Numbered from the stretch's first letter, positions 18,703 to 63,080 are shown. The stretch is DNA of 64,000 nt from Nibricoccus sp. (GCA_047602425.1 JASGHG010000001.1:2368001-2432000); one strand, 5' to 3'. The notes: generated from the letters alone by a model not told the origin. Numbers and translations are program-made.

Positions 18703-19614
18703 TCACTTTAGCTGTAGAACTCTGCGTAGTTCTGCGACCAGATGAGCGGCACCAGGACGAATCGCGACAAGGCGCGGATTCCAAACGAGCACGATGGGAC
18801 GTTTCAACTGCTCGAGGATCTTGGACTCGATCACGACGTAGTCCACGGGCGCGAGGTCGGTCAATGCTAGCTTTGGCAAGATGGCGGCAAAGTGGCCCGA
18901 GCGAACTGCACTCAGTGCGTGAGGGAACGATTGGCAAGCGATGGTGGGAGCGAAAGCCGCGCCGCATTCCTCAGTTAGTGCACGAAGTTTTTGTGCGAAT
19001 TGGCCGTCGGTTGTTTGGGCGACGAGCGGGACTTTGGCTAGAACCTCTTCCAGCGTGAGCTGTTGAACTCGTGATACGAGTTTGCGGGGAACGACAGCCA
19101 CAAATGGAACATCTCCCAATGGTGCCGACTTGAGGCCTTCGCCAACCGCGTCGCGGCGGATCAGGCCGAAGTCGATGCGGCCATCGTTCAGTTGCTGGAC
19201 GATTTCGTTCGTGCGGTGATTGTAGGTAGAGAATCGCATCGGCGTTTTTCCGTGTGAAACTTGGCCGAGCCGTGGGAGCACTAACCATTGAAGCAGGTTG
19301 TCGCCGGCTGCTATACTGTACTCGACGCAGCCCGCATGGCATTCCGAGCGGAAATCCTGTAGCGATCGTAGTTGGTTGCGGGCGAGTTCTGCCAGGCGTG
19401 CGCCTTGAACGGTGAGTTTGAGGATTTTTCCCTGCCGCTTAGTGACTTCGACGCCAAAGAATTCAGAGAGCTCGCGCAATTGACGGCTATATTGGCTCTG
19501 GCGAATGGGATCGCCAGGAGCTGCTTGGGCAATGCTGCCTGCGTCCTGAACTTCAACCAAGACCTTGAGTCGGTCGAGGGATAGACCGCGTTCTGCGAAG
19601 AGAGTGTCAAACAT
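18703..19614 (-). CDS. LysR family transcriptional regulator (copy 1)
   Basis: GSIAQAA..QSQYSRQLRELSEFFG HTH, LTVQG, IDFGL; divergent from the array. Confidence 0.88.
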   Translation of the reverse strand: MFDTLFAERGLSLDRLKVLVEVQDAGSIAQAAPGDPIRQSQYSRQLRELSEFFGVEVTKRQGKILKLTVQGARLAELARNQLRSLQDFRSECHAGCVEYSIAAGDNLLQWLVLPRLGQVSHGKTPMRFSTYNHRTNEIVQQLNDGRIDFGLIRRDAVGEGLKSAPLGDVPFVAVVPRKLVSRVQQLTLEEVLAKVPLVAQTTDGQFAQKLRALTEECGAAFAPTIACQSFPHALSAVRSGHFAAILPKLALTDLAPVDYVVIESKILEQLKRPIVLVWNPRLVAIRPGAAHLVAELRRVLQLK

Positions 19615-19797
19615 GACTACTAAGTCAGGTATCCTGAGTAATCATGTATGGCAAGACTTCTCACGATCGGGTAAAGTCTGCCCCGTCAACTGAGCCGGGA
19701 TTTAAAAATCACGAGAAATATTTTAAACACCTCTTGATTTTTGAAACCCCGGATCCGTTGTAACTCTTCGAACACTCATTCGTCTCAACCTTCTGCC

Positions 19798-19953
19798 ATG
19801 AATTCCACACGACAAATAAAATCAACGACCCTCCGGTTAGCGGAGAGGCATTGGTCGTGCGGCAAACAGACTGCCAAGATGACCATGCGTCGAGGTTTGG
19901 AAAGTTTCCGACCCGACTATGCGAATATTAACCAAGGAAGTGGTGTAACCTGA
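19798..19953 (+). CDS. Putative attenuator leader peptide (51 aa, all 20 amino acids)
   Basis: ORF conserved in both copies, ends 25 nt before a terminator hairpin; last codons contain GGAAGTGG, complementary to the terminator 5' arm. Confidence 0.65.
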   Translation: MNSTRQIKSTTLRLAERHWSCGKQTAKMTMRRGLESFRPDYANINQGSGVT

Positions 19954-19978
19954 GCAACGACTTTACGTAGACTCAAGG

Positions 19979-20007
19979 AACCCACTTCCCTCAGAAGTGG
20001 GTTTTTT
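19979..20007 (+). terminator. Intrinsic terminator / attenuator hairpin
   Basis: AACCCACTTC-CCTCA-GAAGTGGGTT followed by a T run; identical in copy 2. Confidence 0.8.
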
Positions 20008-20153
20008 CATGCCTGAAAAGCCGCTTCTGGGATCCGAGCAAGACTCGTTTTTCCAAGTTTCAAGCGGCTTCACTGCTGAGCCCAGGTCAATCAGCCAACG
20101 TCCGCACAAAATCCCGCGGCCGTCCAAACCACTCGCAAAGTGATAGGGCCGGA

Positions 20154-20173
20154 GGTGTGTGTTCTTTTTTGCG
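20154..20173. repeat. Left arm of 20-bp inverted repeat bracketing tRNA array 1
   Basis: GGTGTGTGTTCTTTTTTGCG is the exact reverse complement of 24610-24629. Confidence 0.9.
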
Positions 20174-20336: not shown

Positions 20337-20413
20337 CGCCTTGTCGTCTAACAGCATAGGATCCCGGAATTTCAAACCGAGGGATGGGGGTGCGAATCCC
20401 GTCGAGGCGACCA
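20337..20413 (+). tRNA. tRNA-Glu(UUC)
   Basis: CGCCTTG/CGAGGCG stem, loop ATTTCAA, CCA; weak anticodon stem. Confidence 0.7.
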
Positions 20414-20521
20414 TTTTGTTCGAACAAGCGCCGGTTCTTAGTCCGAGACCGGAGTGCGCAGTCCCCATCGGATTTCCCGCGAGCCAGTCGGCGGCCAATG
20501 CCGGCAGGGGAATATTTCCAT

Positions 20522-20595
20522 GCGTGTGTGGCGTAACAGCAACGTGCCGGTCTGCCAGTCCGGAGTTCCGAGTGCGATCCTCGGCATGCGCACCA
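20522..20595 (+). tRNA. tRNA-Gly(GCC)
   Basis: Cloverleaf, loop CTGCCAG, CCA. Confidence 0.8.
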
Positions 20596-20602
20596 TTTTC
20601 AT

Positions 20603-20693
20603 GCGCCGGTCCCCATAGCAGCGATTGGTCCAGACTTTTAATCTGGAGAGCCGCAACGCTCCAACGGGGGTGCAAGTCCCTCTCGGCGCACCA
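20603..20693 (+). tRNA. tRNA-Lys(UUU) anticodon with long variable arm
   Basis: CCAGA-CTTTTAA-TCTGG, variable arm GAGC-CGCAAC-GCTC, CCA. Confidence 0.75.
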
Positions 20694-20713
20694 ATTTAAT
20701 AGATACAATTTAC

Positions 20714-20791
20714 GCACGTCGAGGGAGCCAGTGAACCCGGCTGCCTGCAAAGCAGTGTTTCAGCACGGTGCGACACCGTGGACGTGCTCCA
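20714..20791 (+). tRNA. tRNA-Cys(GCA)
   Basis: Loop CTGCAAA, U73, CCA. Confidence 0.82.
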
Positions 20792-20799
20792 TTTCATTT

Positions 20800-20874
20800 G
20801 GGGATATGGCCGAGTTAGTAAGGCATCCGCCCTGCAAGCGGACCATGAGGGTGCGAATCCCTCTGTCTCCACCA
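20800..20874 (+). tRNA. tRNA-Ala(UGC)
   Basis: G3:U70 pair, loop CCTGCAA, CCA. Confidence 0.82.
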
Positions 20875-20912
20875 ATCTTTCCCCCGGTTTTGCGCGAGTG
20901 GGCCGGGTTCAA

Positions 20913-20987
20913 GCCTGAGAGGTGTTGATAGATACACGACCGTCTTCCAAGCGGATGTAGCCGGCGCGATACCGGCCTCGGGCACCA
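20913..20987 (+). tRNA. tRNA-Gly(UCC)
   Basis: Loop CTTCCAA, CCA. Confidence 0.78.
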
Positions 20988-20994
20988 TTTTTAT

Positions 20995-21072
20995 AGCAGG
21001 ATGGAGGAGCGGCCGTCCTCACCAGCCTCATAAGCTGCGAGATCGCTGGTTCAAATCCAGCTCCTGCTACCA
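20995..21072 (+). tRNA. tRNA-Met(CAU), initiator-like
   Basis: Loop CTCATAA, canonical GG D-loop and TTCAAAT T-loop, CCA. Confidence 0.82.
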
Positions 21073-21078
21073 TTTCAT

Positions 21079-21153
21079 ACGGACGTGGCAGACAAGCAAT
21101 GCAGCGGTCTCCAAAACCGCCTTATGGGGGAGCGATACCCTCCGTCCGTGCCA
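21079..21153 (+). tRNA. tRNA-Trp(CCA)
   Basis: GCGGT-CTCCAAA-ACCGC, G73, CCA. Confidence 0.82.
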
Positions 21154-21250
21154 ATTTGCAATATGAAGAGTAACACTTCGCCGAGGGCGAAGGACGAGTA
21201 AAAGTCTCGTTGAAGCAATGTGCGGCTCCGCGTTCAGCGGGGCTGTATCT

Positions 21251-21326
21251 GGAGGTTAGGCCGATCTAGTGATGGCACGTGGTTGAAGCCCACGAGAGCG
21301 CGGCGCAAAACCGCGAGCCTCCACCA
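21251..21326 (+). tRNA. tRNA-Phe(GAA)
   Basis: CGTGG-TTGAAGC-CCACG, CCA. Confidence 0.8.
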
Positions 21327-21334
21327 ATTTTCAT

Positions 21335-21410
21335 CGGGGTGTAGCGTAGCAGCCAACGCGCTCGGCTTGGGACCGAAAGATCGCAGGTGCAACTCCTGTC
21401 ATCCCGACCA
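21335..21410 (+). tRNA. tRNA-Pro(UGG)
   Basis: CGGGGTG start, loop CTTGGGA, CCA. Confidence 0.85.
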
Positions 21411-21416
21411 GTTTTC

Positions 21417-21635
21417 CAGGTGTGTGGCCCAGTCAGCGGGGCACCGGCCCGTGACGCCGGGGACGGAGCGAAGCGGAGATGGGGCCGCCGATAAGCGGAG
21501 GGCGTCATCCCCGAGCGTAGCGAGCCAAATGGGTGCAATTGACTCGTATTCGACAAGCGGATACTCGGGCCTTCGGCCCGCACCTGCGGTGCGCCGTTCC
21601 GCGTAGGAACCACGCTCCACCCACCCACCTGACCA
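21417..21635 (+). pseudogene. tRNA-His(GUG) interrupted by two palindromic insertions (21464-21527, 21540-21619)
   Basis: Removing the insertions essentially restores the uninterrupted copy at 58069-58144. Confidence 0.75.
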
Positions 21636-21639
21636 TTTC

Positions 21640-21716
21640 GCTCGTGGAGGCGAAGTAGTCGAGGCAACCCTCTGTCTGAGGGGAGTAAGCCGGTGCGAGT
21701 CCGGTCGCGAGCGCCA
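21640..21716 (+). tRNA. tRNA-Asp(GUC)
   Basis: Loop CTGTCTG, G73, CCA. Confidence 0.75.
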
Positions 21717-21723
21717 ATTCTAT

Positions 21724-21800
21724 CGAGGCGTAGCCAAGCAGCTAAGGCAGCTGGCCTACACCCAGCCATTCCGGGGGTGCAAGTCCCTCCGCCTCGACCA
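21724..21800 (+). tRNA. tRNA-Val(UAC)
   Basis: GCTGG-CCTACAC-CCAGC, CCA. Confidence 0.8.
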
Positions 21801-21806
21801 TTTGAT

Positions 21807-21881
21807 TCTGGAGTAGTTCAGCAGCAGAACGCCTGGCTGTTAACCAGGATGTCGCAGGGGCAGAACCTGCCTCCAGAGCCA
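21807..21881 (+). tRNA. tRNA-Asn(GUU)
   Basis: CCTGG-CTGTTAA-CCAGG, G73, CCA. Confidence 0.85.
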
Positions 21882-21885
21882 TTTT

Positions 21886-21961
21886 CGTCGGCGAGACGGC
21901 CAGTGAAGTCACCTGCCCGACATGCAGGCAACGCTCGGTGCGACACCGAGGCCGACGACCA
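21886..21961 (+). tRNA. tRNA-Val(GAC)
   Basis: CCTGC-CCGACAT-GCAGG, CCA. Confidence 0.75.
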
Positions 21962-22055
21962 TTTCCTTAGTTGTGTCGGAGGATTGGGCACAGCGAGGAG
22001 ATCAACTGGCCCGGCCACAGGCCGGAGACGAGTGCCTCCGCTCCGCCAGCACCAT

Positions 22056-22130
22056 CCGGACGTAGTGTAGCAGCAACATACTCGCCTCGGACGCGAGTGA
22101 CCGAGGGTGCAAATCCCTCCGTCCGGACCA
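22056..22130 (+). tRNA. tRNA-Pro(CGG)
   Basis: CTCGC-CTCGGAC-GCGAG, CCA. Confidence 0.82.
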
Positions 22131-22136
22131 ATTTTT

Positions 22137-22211
22137 TGCGGTGTCGTCTAACACGCAGGACAGCGGACTTTGAATCCGTTTGTGGAGGTGCGAATCCTCC
22201 CGCCGCAGCCA
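22137..22211 (+). tRNA. tRNA-Gln(UUG)
   Basis: GCGGA-CTTTGAA-TCCGT, U1-A72, CCA. Confidence 0.85.
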
Positions 22212-22215
22212 GCCT

Positions 22216-22355
22216 TGGTCACAAGCTTTAATAGTTAAGCCGCCGGCTCTTAACCGGCAGAACTCGGAGCATTTGACTCGCGCATACGCGCTCGGGGCCT
22301 TGCCCCTAACCTGCTGGTTAGCCGCTCCGCGTTGCTCCGCCGAGGCGGCCCACCA
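22216..22355 (+). tRNA. tRNA-Lys(CUU) with 66-nt T-loop insertion (22274-22339)
   Basis: GCCGG-CTCTTAA-CCGGC; T stem CTCGG/CCGAG flanks the insertion. Confidence 0.7.
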
Positions 22356-22356
22356 T

Positions 22357-22433
22357 GGCTCGATGGCGCAGCATGTAGCGCAGCTCCCTCATAACGAGAA
22401 GGTCGCGGGGTGCGAATCCCGCTCGAGCCCCCA
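22357..22433 (+). tRNA. tRNA-Met(CAU), elongator-like
   Basis: GGCTCGA/TCGAGCC stem, loop CTCATAA, CCA. Confidence 0.72.
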
Positions 22434-22440
22434 TTTTCAA

Positions 22441-22528
22441 CGGGACGTGGCAGAGCAGCAAATGCAACGCACTGTAAATGCGTCGGCTTTACAGCCTATC
22501 ACTGGTGCAAGTCCAGTCGGCCCGACCA
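22441..22528 (+). tRNA. tRNA-Tyr(GUA)
   Basis: ACGCA-CTGTAAA-TGCGT, long variable arm, CCA. Confidence 0.85.
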
Positions 22529-22643
22529 CTTTCTCGGTCTCATGGGTGCCAACAACTCATGCTTTTGTCGGTTAAGGTTAAAACCGGCCAGCAGTTCTGG
22601 TGGATCAGAGCAATCGTTAGGTTTTTGCGTAAAAAACCAGTTT

Positions 22644-22719
22644 GCCTCTTAAGCATAGTTAGCGATGCAACTTCTTGGTAAGGAGTAGATGGTCGGCGCA
22701 CATCCGACAGGAGGCTCCA
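22644..22719 (+). tRNA. tRNA-Thr(GGU)
   Basis: Loop TTGGTAA, GCC start, CCA. Confidence 0.8.
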
Positions 22720-22726
22720 ATTTCAT

Positions 22727-22884
22727 GCGAGCGTGGCGGAATAGCATACGCGCCGGCCCGAGATGCCGGTGAGCGCAAGCTCATGAGGGTGCGATTGACT
22801 CGTATTCGACGAGCGAATACTCGGGCCTGCGGCCCATGCCTGACGGCATGCCGTTCCGCTTCGCTTCACCCTTCGTTCGCACCA
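22727..22884 (+). tRNA. tRNA-Leu(GAG) with 73-nt T-loop insertion (22796-22868)
   Basis: CCGGC-CCGAGAT-GCCGG, variable arm, A73, CCA. Confidence 0.72.
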
Positions 22885-22890
22885 ATTTAT

Positions 22891-22980
22891 CGCGGCGTGG
22901 TTGGAATTAGTATACACAGCGGTCTCAAAATCCGCTGGGCTTCAACGCCCGTGCCGGTGCGAGTCCGGTCGCCGCGACCA
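22891..22980 (+). tRNA. tRNA-Leu(CAA)
   Basis: Loop CTCAAAA, variable arm, CCA. Confidence 0.82.
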
Positions 22981-22981
22981 T

Positions 22982-23069
22982 GCGGCTGTGTGTGGAAAAG
23001 TAGACCAGGCGGTTTTAAAAACCGCTGCGCCTCTGGCGCGTGGGCGTGCAAGTCGCCCCAGCCGCACCA
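22982..23069 (+). tRNA. tRNA-Leu(UAA)
   Basis: GCGGT-TTTAAAA-ACCGC, variable arm, CCA. Confidence 0.8.
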
Positions 23070-23078
23070 ATTTGATAT

Positions 23079-23165
23079 CGGCAAGTGATGGAACAAGCAT
23101 ACACGCGAGTCTCAGAAACTCGAGGGCGCGAGCCTGTGCAGGTGCAAATCCTGTCTTGCCGACCA
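23079..23165 (+). tRNA. tRNA-Leu(CAG)
   Basis: CGAGT-CTCAGAA-ACTCG, variable arm, CCA. Confidence 0.82.
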
Positions 23166-23174
23166 TTTTACTAT

Positions 23175-23251
23175 CGCCCTGTCCTCTAACGAGCACAGGA
23201 GACCCGTTTCTCAAATGGGCAATGTGGGTGCAAGTCCCATCGGGGCGACCA
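23175..23251 (+). tRNA. tRNA-Glu(CUC)
   Basis: CCCGT-TTCTCAA-ATGGG, CCA. Confidence 0.8.
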
Positions 23252-23255
23252 TTGA

Positions 23256-23347
23256 CGCCGCGTAGTTCAAAGTGAACCGTCCGCCTTATAAACGGAATCG
23301 CGCTAGATGAGCGCCAGGCCCGGGAGCGTTACCCGGCGCGGCGACCA
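23256..23347 (+). tRNA. tRNA-Ile(UAU) with long variable arm
   Basis: TCCG-C-CTTATAA-A-CGGA, variable arm GCGCT-AGATG-AGCGC, A73, CCA. Confidence 0.72.
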
Positions 23348-23351
23348 ATTT

Positions 23352-23418
23352 GGGGCAGTGAGAACAGGGGTACTTCGTTCGAAACACGTCAAACAACACC
23401 TTGTTCATGTTTCTCCTC
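23352..23418 (+). ncRNA. Short Y-RNA-like motif unit
   Basis: GGCAGTGAG..TACTTCG..TTCTCC, shared with the units upstream of TROVE in copy 2. Confidence 0.55.
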
Positions 23419-23425
23419 AATATAT

Positions 23426-23500
23426 GCCTCTTATGCGTAGTTAGCGACGCGCGGCGCTTGTACCGCTGAAAGGCCGGCGCAAATCCGGCAGGAGGCTCCA
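23426..23500 (+). tRNA. tRNA-Thr(UGU)
   Basis: Loop CTTGTAC, CCA. Confidence 0.8.
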
Positions 23501-23504
23501 ATTT

Positions 23505-23579
23505 CTCCCTGTAGTGAAATAGCTATCACACGGCTCTGCGAAGGCCGAGATCCAGGTGCAAGTCCCGGCAGGGGGACCA
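23505..23579 (+). tRNA. tRNA-Arg(GCG)
   Basis: CGGCT-CTGCGAA-GGCCG, CCA. Confidence 0.78.
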
Positions 23580-23587
23580 TTTTTCAG

Positions 23588-23662
23588 CTCTGCGTGGTGA
23601 AATTATTATCATGTCGTGCTTCGAACGCGTCGTTGTGGCTGGGATTCCCGCCGCAGAGTCCA
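23588..23662 (+). tRNA. tRNA-Arg(UCG)
   Basis: Loop CTTCGAA, CCA; T stem imperfect in this copy. Confidence 0.68.
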
Positions 23663-23704
23663 ATCTCGTTGTATCTATGCCGTGGTTTATTGCGGCGATA
23701 TTTT

Positions 23705-23777
23705 CTCCGCGTGGCCGAGAAGCTCAGGCCTCCGCCTTCTAAGCGGATCGACGCAGGTGCAAATCCTGTCGCGGAGA
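23705..23777 (+). tRNA. tRNA-Arg(UCU)
   Basis: TCCGC-CTTCTAA-GCGGA; no encoded CCA. Confidence 0.8.
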
Positions 23778-23783
23778 CTTTAC

Positions 23784-23874
23784 GGAGGCGAAATCGGACA
23801 AGCGTGCCGACAACCGTTTGAAGCGGTCAGGGCGACTGCGTGTCGCTGGGGAGCATGACCTCTCGCCTCCGCCA
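23784..23874 (+). tRNA. tRNA-Ser(UGA)
   Basis: GGAG start, loop TTTGAAG, variable arm, G73, CCA. Confidence 0.75.
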
Positions 23875-23880
23875 ATCTTT

Positions 23881-23966
23881 GGAGAGTAAAGCCGTGAAGC
23901 GCGGCGACCGGTTGGAAGCCGGCTCGGACCTCCGGGTCTGTGGGGCGGAACCACTGCTCTCCGCCA
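23881..23966 (+). tRNA. tRNA-Ser(GGA)
   Basis: Loop TTGGAAG, variable arm, G73, CCA. Confidence 0.72.
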
Positions 23967-23974
23967 AATTTGAT

Positions 23975-24200
23975 GGAGAGTGAATCCGCCGAGGTGCGGA
24001 CACTGTTTCGACGAAGCGAAGCGGAGATGGATCGACCGAAGGTCGACCCGCAGGGTGAGCGTAGCGAATCAAAGCAGATGGATTGCCGGCACAAAGACTC
24101 CGCTTTGTTCGTCGTGTTGCCCGCGTTGCGGGCGCCCACGCGACTACCCCTCGCTTCGCTCAGGGCTGCGCCATCTTCGTGCTGCGCACTCCGTCCGCCA
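23975..24200 (+). pseudogene. tRNA-Ser(CGA) disrupted by insertions at 24012-24071 and 24106-24193
   Basis: Comparison with the intact copy at 62743-62832. Confidence 0.75.
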
Positions 24201-24204
24201 TCTT

Positions 24205-24278
24205 CCTCGTGTAGCTCAAAAGCAGAGCAATCGGCTGATAACCGATCGACGTCGGAGCGTTACCGAATGCGAGGACCA
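24205..24278 (+). tRNA. tRNA-Ile(GAU)
   Basis: ATCGG-CTGATAA-CCGAT, CCA. Confidence 0.82.
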
Positions 24279-25327: not shown

Positions 25328-25396
25328 AACCCTGCGGTGGGGGAGTGGCCCAAGCCGACTCAACGACTTATCGCCTTTTCCGCAGGGCTAACTTCC

Positions 25397-37657: not shown

Positions 37658-37671
37658 CGCATTTGATGCAA

Positions 37672-41634: not shown

Positions 41635-41647
41635 TTGGCGAATGGAT

Positions 41648-56986: not shown

Positions 56987-57064
56987 CGCCTTGTCGTCTA
57001 ACAAGCACAGGATCCCGGAATTTCAAACCGAGGGATGCGGGTGCGAATCCCGTCGAGGCGACCA
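56987..57064 (+). tRNA. tRNA-Glu(UUC)
   Basis: Homolog of 20337. Confidence 0.7.
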
Positions 57065-57173
57065 GTTTGTTCGAACAAGCGCCGGTTCTTAATCCGAGAC
57101 CGGAGTGCGCAGTCCCTATCGGATTTCCAAGGAGCCAACCGGCGGCCAAAGCCGGCAGGGGATAATTTCCAAT

Positions 57174-57247
57174 GCGCGTGTGGCGTAACAGCAACGTGCC
57201 GGTCTGCCAGTCCGGAGTTCCGAGTGCGATCCTCGGCATGCGCACCA
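57174..57247 (+). tRNA. tRNA-Gly(GCC)
   Basis: Loop CTGCCAG, CCA. Confidence 0.8.
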
Positions 57248-57254
57248 TTTTTAT

Positions 57255-57345
57255 GCGCCGGTACCCATAGCAGCGATTGGTCCAGACTTTTAATCTGGAG
57301 AGCCGCAATGCTCCACCGGGGGTGCAAGTCCCTCTCGGCGCACCA
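57255..57345 (+). tRNA. tRNA-Lys(UUU) with long variable arm
   Basis: Loop CTTTTAA, CCA. Confidence 0.75.
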
Positions 57346-57366
57346 TTTTAATAGATACAATTTCCT

Positions 57367-57444
57367 GCACGTCGAGGGAGCCAGCGAACCCAGCTGCCTG
57401 CAAAGCAGTGTTTCAGCACGGTGCGACACCGTGGACGTGCTCCA
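57367..57444 (+). tRNA. tRNA-Cys(GCA)
   Basis: Loop CTGCAAA. Confidence 0.8.
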
Positions 57445-57453
57445 TTTTAGTTT

Positions 57454-57528
57454 GGGGATATGGCCGAGTTAGAAAGGCATCCGCCCTGCAAGCGGACCAT
57501 GAGGGTGCGAATCCCTCTATCTCCACCA
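57454..57528 (+). tRNA. tRNA-Ala(UGC)
   Basis: G3:U70, loop CCTGCAA. Confidence 0.82.
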
Positions 57529-57564
57529 ATTTCCCCCGGTTTTGCGCGAGTGGGCCGGGTTCAA

Positions 57565-57639
57565 GCCTGAGAGGTGTTGATAGATACACGACCGTCTTCC
57601 AAGCGGATGTAGCCGGCGCGATACCGGCCTCGGGCACCA
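57565..57639 (+). tRNA. tRNA-Gly(UCC)
   Basis: Loop CTTCCAA. Confidence 0.78.
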
Positions 57640-57646
57640 TTTTTAT

Positions 57647-57724
57647 AGCAGGATGGAGGAGCGGCCGTCCTCACCAGCCTCATAAGCTGCGAGATCGCTG
57701 GTTCAAATCCAGCTCCTGCTACCA
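57647..57724 (+). tRNA. tRNA-Met(CAU), initiator-like
   Basis: Loop CTCATAA. Confidence 0.82.
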
Positions 57725-57730
57725 TTTCAT

Positions 57731-57805
57731 ACGGACGTGGCAGACAAGCAATGCAGCGGTCTCCAAAACCGCCTTATGGGGGCGCGATACCCTCCGTCCG
57801 TGCCA
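57731..57805 (+). tRNA. tRNA-Trp(CCA)
   Basis: Loop CTCCAAA. Confidence 0.82.
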
Positions 57806-57902
57806 ATTTGCAATATGAAGAGTAACACTTCGCCAAGGGCGAAGGACGAGTAAAAGTCTCGTTGAAGCAATAAACGGTACTGTGTCGAACGGTGCTGTTT
57901 TT

Positions 57903-57978
57903 GGAGGTTAGGCCGATCTAGTGATGGCACGTGGTTGAAGCCCACGAGAGCGCGGCGCGAAACCGCGAGCCTCCACCA
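57903..57978 (+). tRNA. tRNA-Phe(GAA)
   Basis: Loop TTGAAGC. Confidence 0.8.
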
Positions 57979-57987
57979 ATTTGTTAT

Positions 57988-58063
57988 CGGGGTGTAGCGT
58001 AGCAGCCAACGCGCTCGGCTTGGGACCGAAAGATCGCAGGTGCAACTCCTGTCACCCCGACCA
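57988..58063 (+). tRNA. tRNA-Pro(UGG)
   Basis: Loop CTTGGGA. Confidence 0.85.
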
Positions 58064-58068
58064 ATTTT

Positions 58069-58144
58069 CAGGTGTGTGGCCCAGTTAGCGGGGCACCGGC
58101 CCGTGAAGCCGGGGAAATGGGTGCAAATCCCATCCACCTGACCA
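58069..58144 (+). tRNA. tRNA-His(GUG), atypical acceptor stem
   Basis: CCGGC-CCGTGAA-GCCGG; A73 and no G-1. Confidence 0.7.
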
Positions 58145-58148
58145 CTCC

Positions 58149-58225
58149 GCTCGTGGAGCCGAAGTAGTCGAGGCAACCCTCTGTCTAAGGGAAGTCAGCC
58201 GGTGCGAGTCCGGTCACGAGCGCCA
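58149..58225 (+). tRNA. tRNA-Asp(GUC)
   Basis: Loop CTGTCTA. Confidence 0.75.
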
Positions 58226-58231
58226 ATTTTT

Positions 58232-58308
58232 CGAGGCGTCGCCTAGTAGCTATGGCAGCTGGCCTACATCCAGCCATTCCGGGGGTGCAAGTCCCTCCGC
58301 CTCGACCA
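58232..58308 (+). tRNA. tRNA-Val(UAC)
   Basis: Loop CCTACAT. Confidence 0.8.
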
Positions 58309-58309
58309 T

Positions 58310-58384
58310 TGCCGAGTAGCACAACAGTAGTGCGACGCCCTGTTAAGGCGCTAGGTGCAAGTGCGAATCTTGCCTCGGCAGCCA
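58310..58384 (+). tRNA. tRNA-Asn(GUU), different sequence from copy 1
   Basis: CGCC-CTGTTAA-GGCG, G73, CCA. Confidence 0.82.
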
Positions 58385-58389
58385 TTTTT

Positions 58390-58465
58390 CGTCGGCGAGA
58401 CGGCCAGTGAAGTCACCTGCCCGACATGCAGGCATCGCTCGGTGCGACACCGAGGCCGACGACCA
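58390..58465 (+). tRNA. tRNA-Val(GAC)
   Basis: Loop CCGACAT. Confidence 0.75.
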
Positions 58466-58559
58466 TGTCCTTAGCTGTGTCGGAGGGTTGGGCACAGCGA
58501 GGAGATCAGCTGGCCCGGCGATAAGCCGGAGACGAGTGCCTCCGCTCCGCCAGCACCAT

Positions 58560-58634
58560 CCGGATGTAGTGTAGCAGCAACACGCTCGCCTCGGACGCGA
58601 GTGACCGAGGGTGCAACTCCCTCCGTCCGGACCA
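58560..58634 (+). tRNA. tRNA-Pro(CGG)
   Basis: Loop CTCGGAC. Confidence 0.82.
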
Positions 58635-58640
58635 ATTTAT

Positions 58641-58715
58641 TGCGGTGTCGTCTAACACGTAGGACAGCGGACTTTGAATCCGTTTGTGGAGGTGCGAATC
58701 CTCCCGCCGCAGCCA
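58641..58715 (+). tRNA. tRNA-Gln(UUG)
   Basis: Loop CTTTGAA. Confidence 0.85.
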
Positions 58716-58719
58716 GCTT

Positions 58720-58859
58720 GGGTCGCAAGCTTTAATCGTGAAGCAGCCGGCTCTTAACCGGCAGAACTCGGAGCATTTGACTCGCGCGTACGCGCTCGGG
58801 GCCTTGCCCCTAACCTGCTGGTTAGCCGCTCCGCGTTGCTCCGCCGAGGCGGCCCACCA
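58720..58859 (+). tRNA. tRNA-Lys(CUU) with T-loop insertion (58778-58843)
   Basis: Loop CTCTTAA; same insertion as copy 1. Confidence 0.7.
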
Positions 58860-58860
58860 T

Positions 58861-58936
58861 GGCTCGATGGCGCAGCATGTAGCGCAGCTCCCTCATAAGG
58901 AGAAGGTCGCGGGTGCGAATCCCGCTCGAGCCCCCA
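58861..58936 (+). tRNA. tRNA-Met(CAU), elongator-like
   Basis: CTCC-CTCATAA-GGAG. Confidence 0.8.
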
Positions 58937-58943
58937 TTTTCAG

Positions 58944-59031
58944 CGGGACGTGGCAGAGCAGCAAATGCAACGCACTGTAAATGCGTCGGCTTCACAGCCT
59001 ATCACTGGTGCAAGTCCAGTCGGCCCGACCA
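58944..59031 (+). tRNA. tRNA-Tyr(GUA)
   Basis: Loop CTGTAAA, variable arm. Confidence 0.85.
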
Positions 59032-59146
59032 CTTTCTCAGTCTCATGGGTGCCAACAACTCATGCTTTTGTCGGTAAAGGTTAAAACCGGCCAGCAGTTC
59101 TGGTGGATCAGAGCAATCGTTAGGTTTTCGCGTAAAAAACCGTTAT

Positions 59147-59222
59147 GCCTCTTAAGCATAGTTAGCGATGCAACTCCTTGGTAAGGAGTAGATGGTCGGC
59201 GCACATCCGACAGGAGGCTCCA
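59147..59222 (+). tRNA. tRNA-Thr(GGU)
   Basis: Loop TTGGTAA. Confidence 0.8.
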
Positions 59223-59228
59223 TTTTAT

Positions 59229-59386
59229 GCGAGCGTGGCGGAATAGCATACGCGCCGGCCCGAGATGCCGGTGAGCGCAAGCTCATGAGGGTGCGATTGA
59301 CTCGTATTCGGCGAGCGAATACTCGGGCCTGCGGCCCACGCCTGACGGCATGCCGTTCCGCTTCGCTTCACCCTCCGTTCGCACCA
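59229..59386 (+). tRNA. tRNA-Leu(GAG) with T-loop insertion (59298-59370)
   Basis: Loop CCGAGAT; same insertion as copy 1. Confidence 0.72.
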
Positions 59387-59392
59387 ATTTAT

Positions 59393-59482
59393 CGCGGCGT
59401 GGTTGGAATCAGTATACACAGCGGTCTCAAAATCCGCTGGGCTTCAACGCCCGTGCCGGTGCGAGTCCGGCCGCCGCGACCA
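59393..59482 (+). tRNA. tRNA-Leu(CAA)
   Basis: Loop CTCAAAA. Confidence 0.82.
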
Positions 59483-59483
59483 T

Positions 59484-59571
59484 GCGGCTGTGTGTGGAAA
59501 AGTAGACCGAGCGGTTTTAAAAACCGCTGCGCCTCTGGCGCGTGGGCGTGCAAGTCGCCCCAGCCGCACCA
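59484..59571 (+). tRNA. tRNA-Leu(UAA)
   Basis: Loop TTTAAAA. Confidence 0.8.
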
Positions 59572-59580
59572 ATTTACTAT

Positions 59581-59667
59581 CGGCAAGTGGTGGAACAAGC
59601 ATACACGCGAGTCTCAGAAACTCGAGGGCGCGAGCCTGTGCAGGTGCAAATCCTGTCTTGCCGACCA
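59581..59667 (+). tRNA. tRNA-Leu(CAG)
   Basis: Loop CTCAGAA. Confidence 0.82.
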
Positions 59668-59676
59668 TTTTTCTAT

Positions 59677-59753
59677 CGCCCTGTCCTCTAACGAGCACAG
59701 GAGACCCGTTTCTCAAATGGGCAATGTGGGTGCGAGTCCCATTGGGGCGACCA
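59677..59753 (+). tRNA. tRNA-Glu(CUC)
   Basis: Loop TTCTCAA. Confidence 0.8.
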
Positions 59754-59757
59754 TTGA

Positions 59758-59849
59758 CGCCGCGTAGTTCAAAGTGAACCGTCCGCCTTATAAACGGAAT
59801 CGCGCTAGATGAGCGCCAGGCCCGGGAGCGTTACCCGGCGCGGCGACCA
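59758..59849 (+). tRNA. tRNA-Ile(UAU) with long variable arm
   Basis: Loop CTTATAA; same as copy 1. Confidence 0.72.
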
Positions 59850-59854
59850 ACTTT

Positions 59855-59922
59855 GGGGTAGTGAGGACAGGGTTACTTCGTTCGAAACACGACAAAACAA
59901 CACCTTGTTCAGATTTCTCCTC
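59855..59922 (+). ncRNA. Y-RNA-like unit 1 (short)
   Basis: GGTAGTGAG..TACTTCG..TTCTCC motif. Confidence 0.55.
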
Positions 59923-59929
59923 AAAATAT

Positions 59930-60004
59930 GCCTCTTATGTGTAGTTATCGACGCGCGGCGCTTGTACCGCTGATAGGCCGGCGCAAATCCGGCAGGAGGC
60001 TCCA
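59930..60004 (+). tRNA. tRNA-Thr(UGU)
   Basis: Loop CTTGTAC. Confidence 0.78.
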
Positions 60005-60009
60005 ATTTT

Positions 60010-60140
60010 CGGGTAGTGAGATCAGGGATACTTCGCCTCCTAAGCGCGTGGTTGTCGGTTCGAGTCCGGCCCTCTCCAAAATTCACGGGGAGGTAGCTCA
60101 ATGGTAGAGCACGTTAAACGCCCTGGCCGGTTTTCTCCCG
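60010..60140 (+). ncRNA. YrlA-like Y RNA, unit 2
   Basis: Motif stem encloses T arm (GTCGG-TTCGAGT-CCGGC), closed acceptor stem, then D arm (TAGCTCAATGGTAGAGCA): permuted tRNA order. Confidence 0.75.
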
Positions 60141-60148
60141 AAACAATT

Positions 60149-60307
60149 TTCTGGGTAGTGAAGGTAGAGATACTTCGCCACCAAAGCGACGCGACCGCTA
60201 TTCCCCGTGCCCGCCGGCAAGCTGGGCTGCGAATACGAGCGCTGGTCCATTGAGCAATCGGTGGATCAGAAGGGCTCTAGGGGAGCTTTGCCTGTTTTCT
60301 CCCAGAA
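60149..60307 (+). ncRNA. Y-RNA-like unit 3
   Basis: TTCTGGG/CCCAGAA closing stem and shared motif. Confidence 0.6.
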
Positions 60308-60312
60308 TAGTT

Positions 60313-60446
60313 TTGGAGGCAGTGAGCGTGCGGATACTTCGGAGAACGCGCTCGCCTAGAGGCGAGAGATTGCAGGTTCAACCCCTGCTCGTGTCGGCAA
60401 CGATACGATGGCGGAATCAAACGCTGCTCGCGACTCTCTCCTCCAA
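60313..60446 (+). ncRNA. Y-RNA-like unit 4
   Basis: TTGGAGG/CCTCCAA stem, shared motif, T arm GCAGG-TTCAACC-CCTGC. Confidence 0.65.
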
Positions 60447-60451
60447 TTCCT

Positions 60452-60602
60452 TTGAAGGTAGTGAGAACGCGGATACTTCTGGTAATGCACGCAAGTGCCA
60501 TGGTTCAAATCCATACACCGCGTTCGGTTTTGGCGCGTTTCACGCGGTCCTGCGGACTCCACCTTCGGTGGCCCCATCTCCGCTACGCTCCGTCTCCTTC
60601 AA
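60452..60602 (+). ncRNA. Y-RNA-like unit 5 (palindromic insertion at 60531-60592)
   Basis: TTGAAGG/CCTTCAA stem, shared motif, T arm ATGG-TTCAAAT-CCAT. Confidence 0.6.
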
Positions 60603-60609
60603 TCAATTT

Positions 60610-60743
60610 TGCGGGTAGTGAGTGTATAGCTACTTCGGACTGAACGGTCGGTGGTTCGATCCCACCTGCGCTTCGGCGCATAGCTCAGTGGTAAGAGCAT
60701 TCAGCGGCCGCAAGGCCGTATCTGTGCACGTAGTTCTCCCGCA
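60610..60743 (+). ncRNA. YrlA-like Y RNA, unit 6
   Basis: T arm GGTGG-TTCGATC-CCACC, acceptor TGCGC-TTCG-GCGCA, D arm TAGCTCAGTGGTAAGAGCA. Confidence 0.78.
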
Positions 60744-60824
60744 TTACCACCGTGTCCCGGCGCTCCGGGTTTGTCTCGCCGCGAGAGATCATCTCGTGGC
60801 CCTAAAAAGAAAAAGGAGGCCATC

Positions 60825-62264
60825 ATGGCCAAGTTCAGTATCCTCAAAGCCCTGTCGCGCGGAAAATCTGCGCCCAACACGGTCAATTTTGAAAACGGTC
60901 GCGCCTACAAGCAGACCGCCAAAGTCGAATTCGTTTCGATTTTGCTCACCACGTTTCTCCAGGAGGAATTTTATCGCACCGAGAAACAAACCACTGCTCG
61001 CATCCGCGAACTGATCACGCAGGTCAACGACCCACTGTTCGTCGCGAAAGGCGCCCTGTATGCACGTAACAAATACGGCATGCGCTCGGTCAGTCACCTC
61101 GTCGCGGGTGAACTGGCCAAACAGGTCAAAGGTGTTACGTGGACGAAACGTTTCTATTCTGAAGTCGTGCGACGACCGGATGACGTCATGGAAACGCTGG
61201 GTTATTACCTTGCGGCCTACGGTCGTCCGATCCCGAACTCCCTTAAAAAGGGTTTGGGTGCAGCACTGGGTCGTTTCGACGAATATCAACTCGCCAAATA
61301 CCGCCGCGACCACGCGGTCTTCAAACTCGTTGACGCAGTAAATCTGGTTCGTCCGGCAGCAACGCCGGCTCTGTCCAAGCTTGTGAAAGGTGAACTCGCT
61401 CCTGCGCAAACGTGGGAGACTAAACTCACGCAAGCGGGTGCGGCTGAGTCAGCCGATGATGTTGCTGAGGCAAAATCTCAGGCGTGGGCACAGCTGGTGC
61501 GTGAGCGCAAGCTCGGCTACCTCGCTCTGCTCCGCAACGTCCGTAATGTGCTGACGCATGCGCCGGAGGTGGTGGACGAACTTTGCGCGCAGCTTGCCAA
61601 TGAGCAGGCGGTGCGCCGTGCGCTCGTGTTTCCGTTCCAGTTTCTGTCCGCCGTTGAAGTGCTGAAGCAGGGCAACCAGCCAGGTACAAACCGCGTGATG
61701 GATGCGCTGAATCAGGCTATCGATTACTCGCTGGCCAACGTGCCGAAGTTCGAGGGTAACACGCTCGTCGCGCTCGACTCCTCCGGCTCGATGGTGGGTC
61801 GTCCGCAGACGATCGGTTCGCTCTTTGCCGCAACGCTGGTGAAGGCAACCGGTGCTGATCTGATGCTTTTCAGTGATGATGCTCGTTACATCACGCTGAA
61901 CCGTCGCGACACCACGCTCACGGCGGCCAACAGCATCCCGTTCATCTCGGGTGGTACGAACTTCAATGCGATCTTCCAGCGTGCGAACCATGCTTACGAT
62001 CGCATCGTGGTCCTGTCCGATATGCAGGGTTGGGTGGGTGGCGGTGCGCCCGTTGCTGCTTTCGCTGCGTATCAGAAGAAGTACGACTGCGCTCCGCGCG
62101 TCTATAGCTTCGATCTGAAAGGTTACGGTACGCTCCAGTTCCCACAGGAACGGGTTTACTGTCTTGCCGGTTGGAGCGATCGCGTATTCGAGGTCATGCA
62201 AAAACTCGATCGCGATCCCGAGGCACTGGTTCACGAAGTCGAGGCAATCTCGCTCGCGGACTAA
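60825..62264 (+). CDS. rsr: Ro60/TROVE domain RNA-binding protein (Rsr)
   Basis: AAGGAGG RBS; N..NGRAY, ARNKYGMRS, FDEYQLAKY, TWET, ALLRNVRN, vWA DSSGSM, GGTN, LSDMQ. Confidence 0.92.
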   Translation: MAKFSILKALSRGKSAPNTVNFENGRAYKQTAKVEFVSILLTTFLQEEFYRTEKQTTARIRELITQVNDPLFVAKGALYARNKYGMRSVSHLVAGELAKQVKGVTWTKRFYSEVVRRPDDVMETLGYYLAAYGRPIPNSLKKGLGAALGRFDEYQLAKYRRDHAVFKLVDAVNLVRPAATPALSKLVKGELAPAQTWETKLTQAGAAESADDVAEAKSQAWAQLVRERKLGYLALLRNVRNVLTHAPEVVDELCAQLANEQAVRRALVFPFQFLSAVEVLKQGNQPGTNRVMDALNQAIDYSLANVPKFEGNTLVALDSSGSMVGRPQTIGSLFAATLVKATGADLMLFSDDARYITLNRRDTTLTAANSIPFISGGTNFNAIFQRANHAYDRIVVLSDMQGWVGGGAPVAAFAAYQKKYDCAPRVYSFDLKGYGTLQFPQERVYCLAGWSDRVFEVMQKLDRDPEALVHEVEAISLAD

Positions 62265-62281
62265 ACGCCTAAATCTCCTAC

Positions 62282-62309
62282 GGAGCCGAACATAGTTCGG
62301 TTCCTTTTT
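62282..62309 (+). terminator. Terminator-like hairpin after TROVE
   Basis: GGAGCCGAAC-ATA-GTTCGGTTCC followed by TTTTT. Confidence 0.6.
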
Positions 62310-62384
62310 CTTCCTGTAGTGAAACAGCTATCACGCGGCTCTGCGAAGGCCGAGATCCAGGTGCAAGTCCCGGCAGGAGGACCA
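62310..62384 (+). tRNA. tRNA-Arg(GCG)
   Basis: Loop CTGCGAA. Confidence 0.78.
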
Positions 62385-62394
62385 ATTTTCAATA

Positions 62395-62469
62395 CTCTGC
62401 GTGGTGAAATTATTATCATGTCGCGCTTCGAACGCGTAGTTGCGGGTGGGATTCCTGCCGCAGAGGCCA
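62395..62469 (+). tRNA. tRNA-Arg(UCG)
   Basis: CGCG-CTTCGAA-CGCG. Confidence 0.75.
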
Positions 62470-62473
62470 TTTT

Positions 62474-62546
62474 CTCCGCGTGGCCGAGAAGCTCAGGCCT
62501 CCGCCTTCTAAGCGGATCGACGCAGGTGCAAATCCTGTCGCGGAGA
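62474..62546 (+). tRNA. tRNA-Arg(UCU)
   Basis: Loop CTTCTAA; no encoded CCA. Confidence 0.8.
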
Positions 62547-62552
62547 CTTTAC

Positions 62553-62643
62553 GGAGGTGAAATCGGACAAGCGTGCCGACAGCCGTTTGAAGCGGTCAGG
62601 GCGACTGTTTGTCGCTGGGGAGCATGCCCTCTCGCCTCCGCCA
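62553..62643 (+). tRNA. tRNA-Ser(UGA)
   Basis: Loop TTTGAAG. Confidence 0.75.
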
Positions 62644-62649
62644 ATCTTT

Positions 62650-62735
62650 GGAGAGTAAAGCCGTGAAGCGCGGCGACCGGTTGGAAGCCGGCTCGGACCT
62701 CCGGGTCTGTGGGGCAGAACCACTGCTCTCCGCCA
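62650..62735 (+). tRNA. tRNA-Ser(GGA)
   Basis: Loop TTGGAAG. Confidence 0.72.
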
Positions 62736-62742
62736 AATGTGT

Positions 62743-62832
62743 GGAGAGTGAATCCGCCGAGGTGCGGACGCTGTTTCGAAAGCAGCTGGATCGGCGATGC
62801 CGGTTGAGGCGCAAGCCCTCCGCTCTCCGCCA
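62743..62832 (+). tRNA. tRNA-Ser(CGA)
   Basis: GCTGT-TTCGAAA-GCAGC, variable arm, G73, CCA. Confidence 0.78.
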
Positions 62833-62837
62833 TTTTT

Positions 62838-62911
62838 CCTCGTGTAGCTCAAAAGCAGAGCAATCGGCCGATAACCGATCGACGTCGGAGCGTTACCGAA
62901 CGCGAGGACCA
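62838..62911 (+). tRNA. tRNA-Ile(GAU)
   Basis: Loop CCGATAA. Confidence 0.8.
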
Positions 62912-62917
62912 TTTTTC

Positions 62918-63005
62918 GGAGGGTTAATCCCGAGAGTCGGAAGCCGCGGTGCTAACGCGTGCGGCGGTAAAAGCCGCTGAGGGGCAGGACCTCAACCCTC
63001 CGCCA
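62918..63005 (+). tRNA. tRNA-Ser(GCU)
   Basis: Loop GTGCTAA. Confidence 0.72.
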
Positions 63006-63006
63006 T

Positions 63007-63080
63007 TGCCGGGTCGTCTAGCAGCAGGACAGCGGTCTCTGAAACCGCGAACGCATGTGCGACTCATGCCCCGGCAGCCA
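63007..63080 (+). tRNA. tRNA-Gln(CUG)
   Basis: GCGGT-CTCTGAA-ACCGC, CCA. Confidence 0.82.

Follow-up and report, generated by a model that had tools for sequence, protein, structure and literature searches.

A leader open reading frame with about one codon for each amino acid ahead of tRNA arrays in Nibricoccus and its relatives: a candidate ribosome-dependent attenuator

The window analysed here is a stretch of 64,000 nucleotides (nt) from Nibricoccus sp. (GCA_047602425.1 JASGHG010000001.1:2368001-2432000). It carries two arrays of tRNA genes, each preceded by a short leader open reading frame (ORF) and a predicted intrinsic terminator, T1. This leader region is probably a ribosome-dependent transcription attenuator that reports the general translation competence of the cell. 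The anatomy of the region, its conservation, the alternative pairings of its RNA and the compositional bias of the encoded peptide were established by computation. An earlier note on this DNA had interpreted the region as a leader-peptide attenuator, which on the sequence data appears to be the best-supported interpretation. We infer that the ORF is translated, that read-through into the array is regulated and that the array lacks a separate promoter. The parts of the leader region are as follows (copy 1, with copy 2 in brackets):

19733..19763 (copy 2: 56295-56325), plus strand: promoter-like motif CTTGATTT-N14-CCGTTGTAA, recognized by conservation; putative promoter
19798..19953 (copy 2: 56360-56515), plus strand: leader ORF of 51 codons and TGA, from translation
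19830..19846, plus strand: hairpin H1 (CUCCG/CGGAG) within codons 11-17, from folding; possible RNA polymerase pause site
19936..19943 (copy 2: 56498-56505), plus strand: segment 2, GGAAGTGG, the anti-terminator strand, in codons 47-49 (Gly-Ser-Gly)
19951..19975, plus strand: stop codon (19951-19953) together with the intervening hairpin at the top of the anti-terminator stem, from folding
19976..20007 (copy 2: 56538-56569), plus strand: predicted intrinsic terminator T1, from folding and conservation
19981-19989, 19994-20001 and 20002-20007: 5' arm (segment 3), 3' arm (segment 4) and U-tract of T1

The basic claims of the earlier note were borne out. A 51-codon ORF lies ahead of each array, both copies translate to 51 residues, and none of the 20 amino acids is missing from either peptide. 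There are 39 different codons in copy 1, whose first 22 codons contain no repeat; ATA, TTA and AGG are among these 22, and CGA and CGG are present in the complete codon list. Copy 2 uses 41 different codons. Segment 2 is exactly complementary to CCACTTCC (19982-19989) in the 5' arm of T1. The ORF, the complementary segments and the terminator are all retained in copy 2 (56360-56569), and the approximately 0.7 kb ahead of each array are 92% identical between the copies. In copy 1, the 5' arm of T1 lies 28 nt past the stop codon; the stem CCCACTTC/GAAGTGGG is followed by T6 and ends at 20007, and the hairpin alone folds with -17.6 kcal/mol (ViennaRNA). A complete set of amino acids is rare in the same genome: Of 4571 ORFs that run from ATG to stop over 48-60 codons, 44 (0.96%) have all 20, and the share among 52-residue windows from long ORFs is 2.0%. 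At least 39 different codons in 51 occur in 0.1% of gene windows and 0.4% of random small ORFs. A single case noticed post hoc is little proof, and therefore relatives of the region were examined.

When 60 related genomes were searched at the DNA level, the region turned up in nine other genera, with its best-conserved part just downstream of the terminator. An exact-pattern scan with the core of this part, using one genome per species, yielded 90 loci. Together with the loci of the earlier genome search, 101 were collected, of which 73 were homologous by BLAST and 66 unique. They come from Opitutaceae, Opitutus, Lacunisphaera, Rariglobus, Nibricoccus, Geminisphaera, Ereboglobus and other Verrucomicrobiota as well as from two bins with odd labels. 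The region that heads the arrays is a patchy, accessory element: It was found in 74 of the 401 genomes of the family that were searched (54 of 286 high-quality ones), spread over 30 of 63 genera; the four other genomes of the window's own genus lack it. A metagenome scan provided at least 120 further loci, among them 40 without a homologous flank, 10 with too short an upstream sequence and seven without a recognizable terminator; it yielded at least 56 further unique leaders. Two matches in a scan of viral contigs were dismissed as chance hits, since both lie inside unrelated coding sequence and lack any other element of the locus. For the analyses below, three genome-derived ORFs of 83-96 amino acids, which extend to an in-frame ATG further upstream, and L104, a truncated duplicate, were set aside, leaving 59 loci, and six of the 56 metagenome leaders outside 43-62 amino acids were removed, leaving 50. 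The combined set comprises 109 loci; in this and all later counts on this set, the metagenome part refers to the matches listed. Homologous leaders, which the earlier note had proposed to look for ahead of related arrays, were thus found in at least 109 unique loci.

The ORF is conserved as an ORF, and judged by sequence this applies to frame 0 only. An ATG-started frame ending shortly 5' of T1 is present in 63 of the 66 genome loci; of the three without it, one is on a truncated contig. All 59 genome-derived loci have frame 0 open, none has frame +1 open, and three have frame +2 open. The ATG is nearly invariant in alignment A2, and the ORF length varies between 49 and 60 codons across the 109 loci. 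The stop codon follows segment 2 at a distance of 7 nt in 102 of the 109 loci, and its identity changes at this fixed place (TGA 61, TAA 37, TAG 11). Among single-base codon differences, the synonymous share is 0.395 in frame compared to 0.268 and 0.236 out of frame, calculated from moderately diverged pairs that are not mutually independent. Per-position entropy displays a weak third-position excess (1.29 vs. 1.12 and 1.15). Neither the peptide nor a 20-member alignment of it found a match among 5.8 billion predicted proteins; the leader ORFs have seemingly been missed by gene callers. Pfam did not contain a match to the leader peptide either.

The alternative pairings are conserved, too. Across the loci, the predicted T1 is a G+C-rich hairpin of 8-9 bp followed by T6-9; the pairing of segments 3 and 4 is intact in 99.0% of 501 cells of alignment A2, with five cells changed on both sides. 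When the copy 1 RNA is folded as if it ended at segment 3, GGAAGUGG pairs with CCACUUCC, capped by a small hairpin (local -23.0 kcal/mol), whereas the full leader adopts the terminator conformation (ViennaRNA). Both conformations suggested by the earlier note are hence predicted by folding. In nascent RNAs comprising the last 90 nt of the ORF through segment 3, the anti-terminator was found in 58 of 59 loci, if at least six of the eight segment 3 bases had to pair with the last 30 nt of the ORF. On average, 7.71 of these eight bases were paired with the end of the ORF compared to 1.26 after shuffling its last 30 nt. The 2:3 pairing is preserved in 97.8% of 445 cells of A2, while slid controls reach at most 56.9% and none of 500 shuffles matched it. 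Segment 2 is exact in 84 of the 109 loci and carries at most two changes in the rest. Three cells are compensated: In L008 and L068, segment 3 has G in place of A, and segments 2 and 4 both have C in place of T; in L029, T replaces C in segment 3 and A replaces G in segment 2. G-U pairs occur in three loci. Variation is scarce, which is to be expected if three segments and the Gly-Ser-Gly coding have to change jointly; the existing variation fits the model. The distance from the stop codon to the 5' arm of the terminator amounts to 21-38 nt, mostly 26-34 nt, in the 109 loci, and hairpins of varying sequence occupy the site of the intervening hairpin in A2. From established footprint sizes it can be argued that a ribosome at the stop codon masks segment 2 and leaves segment 3 free. 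A simple promoter/terminator scanner returned only chance-level sites and did not list T1; the evidence on pairing is based on the ViennaRNA folds and not on this scanner.

The third line of evidence is the composition of the peptide. The full set of 20 amino acids is present in 31 of the 59 peptides from the genome loci; 47 reach at least 19, and the mean is 19.25. In 2000 column-shuffled alignments, the mean was 17.66 with a maximum of 18.02, and peptides with all 20 averaged 3.2 with a maximum of 10; peptides drawn at random from the amino acid composition of all leaders pooled had all 20 in 1.8% of cases. The separate metagenome set, which includes very divergent peptides, displays the same bias (all 20 in 30/50, at least 19 in 38/50 among the matches listed), and the pooled values are 61/109 and 85/109. 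Rare residues tend to be present exactly once (Cys in 52, Tyr in 50, Trp in 45, Phe in 45 and Asp in 42 of the 59 peptides), and these single copies are distributed over 2, 7, 10, 14 and 13 alignment columns, respectively. In one clade, Tyr has replaced Cys in the WSC motif, a new Cys has appeared five residues further on, and the usual Tyr of DYA has been lost. Clustering of the peptides at 50% identity gave 21 groups, and in 15 of them the first member contained at least 19 amino acids, compared to a null rate of 8-13%. The number of different codons in the first 51 averages 36.6 compared to 30.5 (standard deviation 3.2) in random small ORFs. After removal of the last nine residues, the part in which a stalled ribosome would still mask segment 2, all 20 amino acids are left in 20 of 59 peptides (null 0.2%) and at least 19 in 37 (null 3.1%). 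In these composition tests, shared ancestry was not fully removed. Codon and amino acid diversity are conserved far above the null expectation first in the genome loci and then in the separate metagenome set. Consistent with the attenuator reading, every prediction of it that was testable at the sequence level held in the relatives.

Beyond T1, the following elements lead to the tRNA genes:

20020..20173 (copy 2: 56582-56735), plus strand: structured RNA domain, termed CE, ending with GGUGUGUGUUCUUUUUUGCG, from conservation and pair counts
20177-20200, plus strand: G+C-rich hairpin that recurs in related loci
about 20214-20269, plus strand: second conserved branched element with a U-run at its end, recurring in related loci
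20337..24275, plus strand: tRNA array 1, from ARAGORN and Rfam; its first gene is tRNA-Glu(UUC)-like (20337-20410)
56987..63080, plus strand: tRNA array 2, from ARAGORN and Rfam, preceded by copy 2 of the entire leader region
18703..19614 (copy 2: 55266-56177), minus strand: LysR-type regulator gene (Pfam HTH_1 and LysR_substrate), divergent from the leader

CE comprises about 155 nt, starts about 13 nt after the U-tract of T1 and is the best-conserved part of the locus. Its consensus consists of a long helix with two inner helices and a subsequent three-hairpin junction closed by a short helix. Across 45 pairs, 90.7% of 2447 cells are paired compared to at most 45.5% in slid controls, and 16 pairs have changed on both sides. 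CE contains many G-U pairs that fit the plus strand only and many invariant bases. Rfam recognized only tRNAs, both in the window at the gathering threshold and in 19600-20530 with E up to 10 as well as in nine related loci. Y RNA, T-box, tmRNA and 6S RNA were considered and rejected as identities of CE, as no model matched and a T-loop-like motif was not visible by eye. CE may be a new RNA class; it could function as another checkpoint, as a platform for processing or as a stable small RNA. The tail of CE or the element that follows it was considered as a possible second terminator. The branched element resembles a terminator: In relatives, it has the outer stem GCGCGG/CCGCGC, and its U-run lies directly 5' of tRNA-Glu, whose gene starts immediately after this U-run in most loci. 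The first tRNA is located about 330 nt past the terminator, behind these further conserved RNA elements. Same-strand tRNAs were called by ARAGORN downstream of the leader in most loci, up to 21 within 3 kb, while upstream of it, one tRNA was called in each of four loci and none in the rest. A promoter-like motif is not conserved just after T1. The motif CTTGAWTT-N13/14-CCGTTGTAAC is found in nearly all loci about 33-37 nt 5' of the ATG, and in the 5.16-Mb genome, the promoter-like motif is present only at the two leaders. Because of the order putative promoter, leader, structured RNA and tRNAs, T1 lies inside an apparent single transcription unit, as an attenuator requires.

The proposed switch would measure the pace of the ribosome against that of RNA polymerase over a test frame of about 52 codons with about one of every amino acid. 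Transcription would start at the dedicated promoter beside the divergent LysR-type regulator gene. A ribosome that arrives at the stop codon in time would mask GGAAGTGG, segment 3 (CCACTTCC) would then pair with segment 4, T1 would form, the transcript would end at 20007, and the array would be silent. If the ribosome is late, stalls within about the first 42 codons or is absent, segment 2 would pair with segment 3 and T1 would be blocked. This might be caused by the lack of almost any charged tRNA, by cleaved tRNAs, translation inhibitors or failed initiation. Polymerase would then continue through CE into the tRNA array. Internal hairpins may pause polymerase and allow the ribosome to catch up. 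Single codons would respond to severe shortage only, and residues found only near the stop would not be sensed. In the nascent folds, no upstream partner (a segment 1) competes for segment 2. Therefore, the default without translation should be read-through, unlike in trp, and a start-codon mutant should be constitutively on. The RNA of the leader ORF is unusually structured, with a mean minimum free energy (MFE) z-score of -2.3 and values below -2 in 37 of 59 loci. At the site of H1, per-locus folds show a hairpin of differing sequence in other loci; in a fixed-column count, 61.4% of its cells are paired, the same as after sliding by +1, with a register that slips between subfamilies. Contigs from relatives are present in four metatranscriptomes, and one of 9.6 kb spans the region; they are silent on starts, ends and regulation. 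Public RNA runs cover only small shares of the stretch.

The arrays themselves are dense and same-stranded, with 16 and 22 tRNAs called by default ARAGORN and more at a permissive threshold. They agree with the description of long tRNA arrays as groups of about 20 or more supernumerary tRNA genes with a patchy distribution. The earlier note had assumed a complete backup tRNA set. The arrays are indeed present, while strict completeness did not hold: At the permissive threshold, 16 amino acids are covered by the plus-strand tRNA-like genes of array 1 and 19 by those of array 2, where Asp is missing; at the default threshold, the numbers are lower. Neither ARAGORN nor Rfam found tRNA-Asp in either array. 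Many array tRNAs are low-scoring (30-60 bits in Rfam), several are missed by default ARAGORN, and by sequence they appear divergent from standard tRNAs. An island between the arrays (31747-51676) encodes a MoxR-vWA-beta-propeller ternary conflict system (bpX0-4, bpMoxR), Macro, ADP-ribosylglycohydrolase, NADAR and microbial PARG-like proteins, the RNA 2'-phosphotransferase Tpt1/KptA and an SPFH protein. In addition, it contains a salvage set for nicotinamide adenine dinucleotide (NAD) with NAPRTase, NAD synthase, phosphoribosyl pyrophosphate synthetase-like, cytidylyltransferase-like and isochorismatase-family proteins and an NrtR-like Nudix regulator. This island is an RNA-damage and NAD-stress setting. 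A TROVE (Ro60-like) gene (60771-62264) is located inside array 2.

The arrays and their surroundings permit a more far-reaching proposal, which is put forward tentatively as a real possibility. According to it, the leader is a universal translation-supply sensor, selection keeps about one codon per amino acid, and a mobile spare tRNA set is switched on. Shortage or destruction of tRNAs or a general slowing of ribosomes would delay the ribosome and free the anti-terminator. This could constitute a sense-and-replace circuit against tRNA-targeting toxins, collateral damage of phage defence or antibiotics, in which the spare tRNA set would reside in an island together with Ro/TROVE, Tpt1, ADP-ribose-removing enzymes and NAD salvage.

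A number of observations weigh against the attenuator reading or limit its reach. Inspection of the sequence ahead of the leader ATG did not reveal a Shine-Dalgarno-like sequence. The only Val codon of copy 1 is codon 50, within the zone where a stalled ribosome still masks segment 2, and therefore the leader cannot respond to every amino acid. A sensor of this kind cannot be wholly universal, as only the 20 of 59 peptides mentioned above keep all 20 amino acids without their last nine residues, and one codon per amino acid provides much less leverage than the codon runs of classical attenuators. The conserved WSC, RPDYA and GSG motifs and the synonymous excess show that particular residues or RNA hairpins are selected as well, and this would suit an arrest peptide, too. 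With three cells, compensatory support for the anti-terminator is thin, and L006, L007 and L059, which belong to one lineage, have a G-A mismatch with an extra adjacent G-C pair. Two more structured elements with terminal U-runs are situated between T1 and the first tRNA, and therefore passing T1 may not suffice. Of the 66 loci, 13 with at least about 1.5 kb downstream lack a tRNA in that sequence. Furthermore, the LysR-type regulator may exert the main control; a homologue lies upstream and in divergent orientation at 36 of the 63 related loci, and its distance to the leader ATG is 176-196 nt in most cases.

Three other explanations were weighed against the attenuator that senses general translation competence. 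The leader might be an attenuator in which one drug or metabolite provokes a specific nascent-peptide arrest at WSC, RPDYA or GSG, with amino acid diversity being secondary. The conserved motifs in alignments A2 and A4 and in the peptide alignment as well as the in-frame synonymous share (0.395 vs. 0.24-0.27) agree with this, and drug-sensing attenuation leader peptides are known in Bacillus from the accessible part of one report (PMC6851288). However, the motifs coincide with RNA hairpins and with segment 2, and due to this overlap, RNA constraints explain much of them. Very divergent leaders without the motifs (L006, L007, L022; L124, L128, L183) retain all 20 amino acids, a one-of-each pattern with moving single copies is not expected of an arrest motif, and a stall at RPDYA (codons 38-42) would be at the edge of the zone in which segment 2 is masked. 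A specific arrest peptide is consequently considered unlikely. Somewhat less likely still is a separate small gene, or a dual-function small RNA, that consists of the ORF and T1 and has its end at T1; CE and the tRNAs would then be transcribed from another start, and the GGAAGTGG/CCACTTCC complementarity would be non-regulatory. T1 is strong and canonical, the 13 loci with adequate downstream sequence show no tRNA there, and attenuator-derived small RNAs and functional leader peptides exist, as exemplified by rnTrpL/peTrpL in the available text of PMC7968998. Yet CE begins only about 13 nt after T1, which leaves no room for a promoter, and a promoter-like motif is not conserved there, whereas the special promoter motif is found only before leaders. 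The fixed 7-nt spacing of the stop codon in 102/109 loci and the 2:3 pairing in 58/59 would be left unexplained, and a free-standing protein does not agree with the lack of any match among the predicted proteins.

The least probable alternative is a switch controlled by RNA or protein only. Here, the choice between the 2:3 and 3:4 pairings would be made by a ligand, tRNA or protein bound to the structured leader (H1-H3), or the LysR-type regulator would control the array alone, and the ORF would be untranslated. The unusual structure of the ORF RNA (mean MFE z-score -2.3), the LysR-type gene in 36/63 loci and the missing Shine-Dalgarno sequence are in accordance with such a switch. It does not account for a frame 0 that is open in 59/59 loci compared to 0 and 3 for the other frames, for the nearly invariant ATG, for a stop whose identity varies at a fixed place or for an amino acid composition that is strongly under-dispersed. 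Frame, ATG, stop turnover and composition, as well as the synonymous excess, are indirect signs of translation.

Among known systems, the classical attenuators (trpL, hisL, leuL, thrL, ilvL, pheL) are close to the ribosome-dependent switch proposed here. They contain runs of one to three cognate amino acids in leaders of 14-32 codons and control biosynthetic enzymes. In the E. coli pyrBI/pyrE attenuators, a ribosome coupled to polymerase on a leader ORF of about 44 codons prevents the terminator hairpin, depending on UTP-dependent (uridine triphosphate) polymerase pausing. T-boxes bind one specific uncharged tRNA without a ribosome and control genes for aminoacyl-tRNA synthetases or amino acids. 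Like the classical attenuators, of which pheL is described in the accessible part of PMC3082878, the region has a short leader ORF, a predicted intrinsic terminator and, overlapping with the ORF, an anti-terminator that excludes the terminator; the choice between the two would depend on where the ribosome is. In contrast to them, it has 49-60 codons with about one of each amino acid, a tRNA array as the target and no segment 1; lack of translation is predicted to cause read-through and not super-attenuation. The leader contains no run of any codon. By sequence, the region thus appears to possess the structure of a leader-peptide attenuator but not the cognate codon run of the classical ones. 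Like pyrBI/pyrE, it would read how closely the ribosome follows RNA polymerase on the leader ORF, whereas an arriving ribosome is here predicted to permit termination. It shares with T-boxes a choice between terminator and anti-terminator that would report tRNA charging; a T-box was not among the Rfam matches in the window at the gathering threshold or in 19600-20530 with E up to 10.

Inhibitor-induced leader attenuators have been described for the tylosin-induced yxjB gene of Bacillus subtilis (PMC6851288) and for chloramphenicol-induced loci (PMC13689557). In the available parts of these papers, stalling on the leader ORF relieves a downstream terminator and the input is impaired translation, as proposed here. 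They treat particular arrest contexts of drug and peptide ahead of resistance genes, and in these parts, neither a one-of-each composition nor tRNA genes are reported. The trn operon of Anabaena sp. PCC 7120 is a long tRNA array which is normally silent and induced by translational stress or inhibitors; the ribbon-helix-helix repressor TrcR acts at direct repeats over its -10 box, and rtcB is co-regulated (PMC8421152, PMC10272220, in their accessible text). Both systems are horizontally spread long tRNA arrays with a link to RNA repair, by genes close by in the window and by co-regulated rtcB in Anabaena. They differ in that a promoter repressor is used there, and their sequences are unrelated. 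The accessible texts of PMC8421152 and PMC10272220 do not contain the words 'leader' and 'attenuat', and 'terminator' is absent from that of PMC8421152, the only one searched for it.

A published description of such a leader was not found in the full-text literature searched, a body that excludes subscription-only papers and supplements. To our knowledge, switching on of cryptic long tRNA arrays is known for one cyanobacterium only, where it is exerted by a repressor. The leader region would offer a second, self-contained array switch that can be read from the sequence. Attenuators have so far been viewed as sensors of one to three amino acids; if the proposal is true, a leader with one of every amino acid extends attenuation to the sensing of overall decoding capacity. 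The design yields sharp and cheap predictions for mutants (start-codon, stop-position, compensatory), and the leader could serve as a compact reporter of translation stress. In addition, a family of peptides that is not annotated and escapes gene callers has come to light, and with it at least one conserved, structured RNA that is new.

Several further features of the surroundings were observed. An imperfect inverted repeat at 19687-19760 (copy 2 about 56249-56322) with about 17 nt per arm spans the -35 region. Situated between the LysR-type gene and the leader, it is, by its sequence, a candidate LysR binding site; weak microRNA-like Rfam matches merely reflect this repeat and were discarded. 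A motif GCGGTCAYTGAGGGCGGA..GAAGTCTTC..CCGAGCGACCTGAGCCGC occurs downstream of CE in L004, L006, L007, L008 and L010, mostly without nearby tRNAs; Rfam does not contain a match to it, and the genome of the window lacks it. Just 5' of the TROVE gene, permissive ARAGORN called odd tRNA-like sequences with abnormal anticodon loops at 60176 and 60327, which are candidates for bacterial Y RNAs. Copy 2 alone carries a G+C-rich insertion of 89 nt (56736-56824) directly 3' of CE. It may be a small repeat element, because a GGAGCGCGCAGCGCG-like sequence trails CE in several other loci. Each array is followed by an HNH endonuclease gene and array 1 also by a gene of the sigma-70 family with regions 3 and 4 only (24692-26104; 63221-63913). 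The latter could encode a dedicated sigma factor for the unusual promoter motif.

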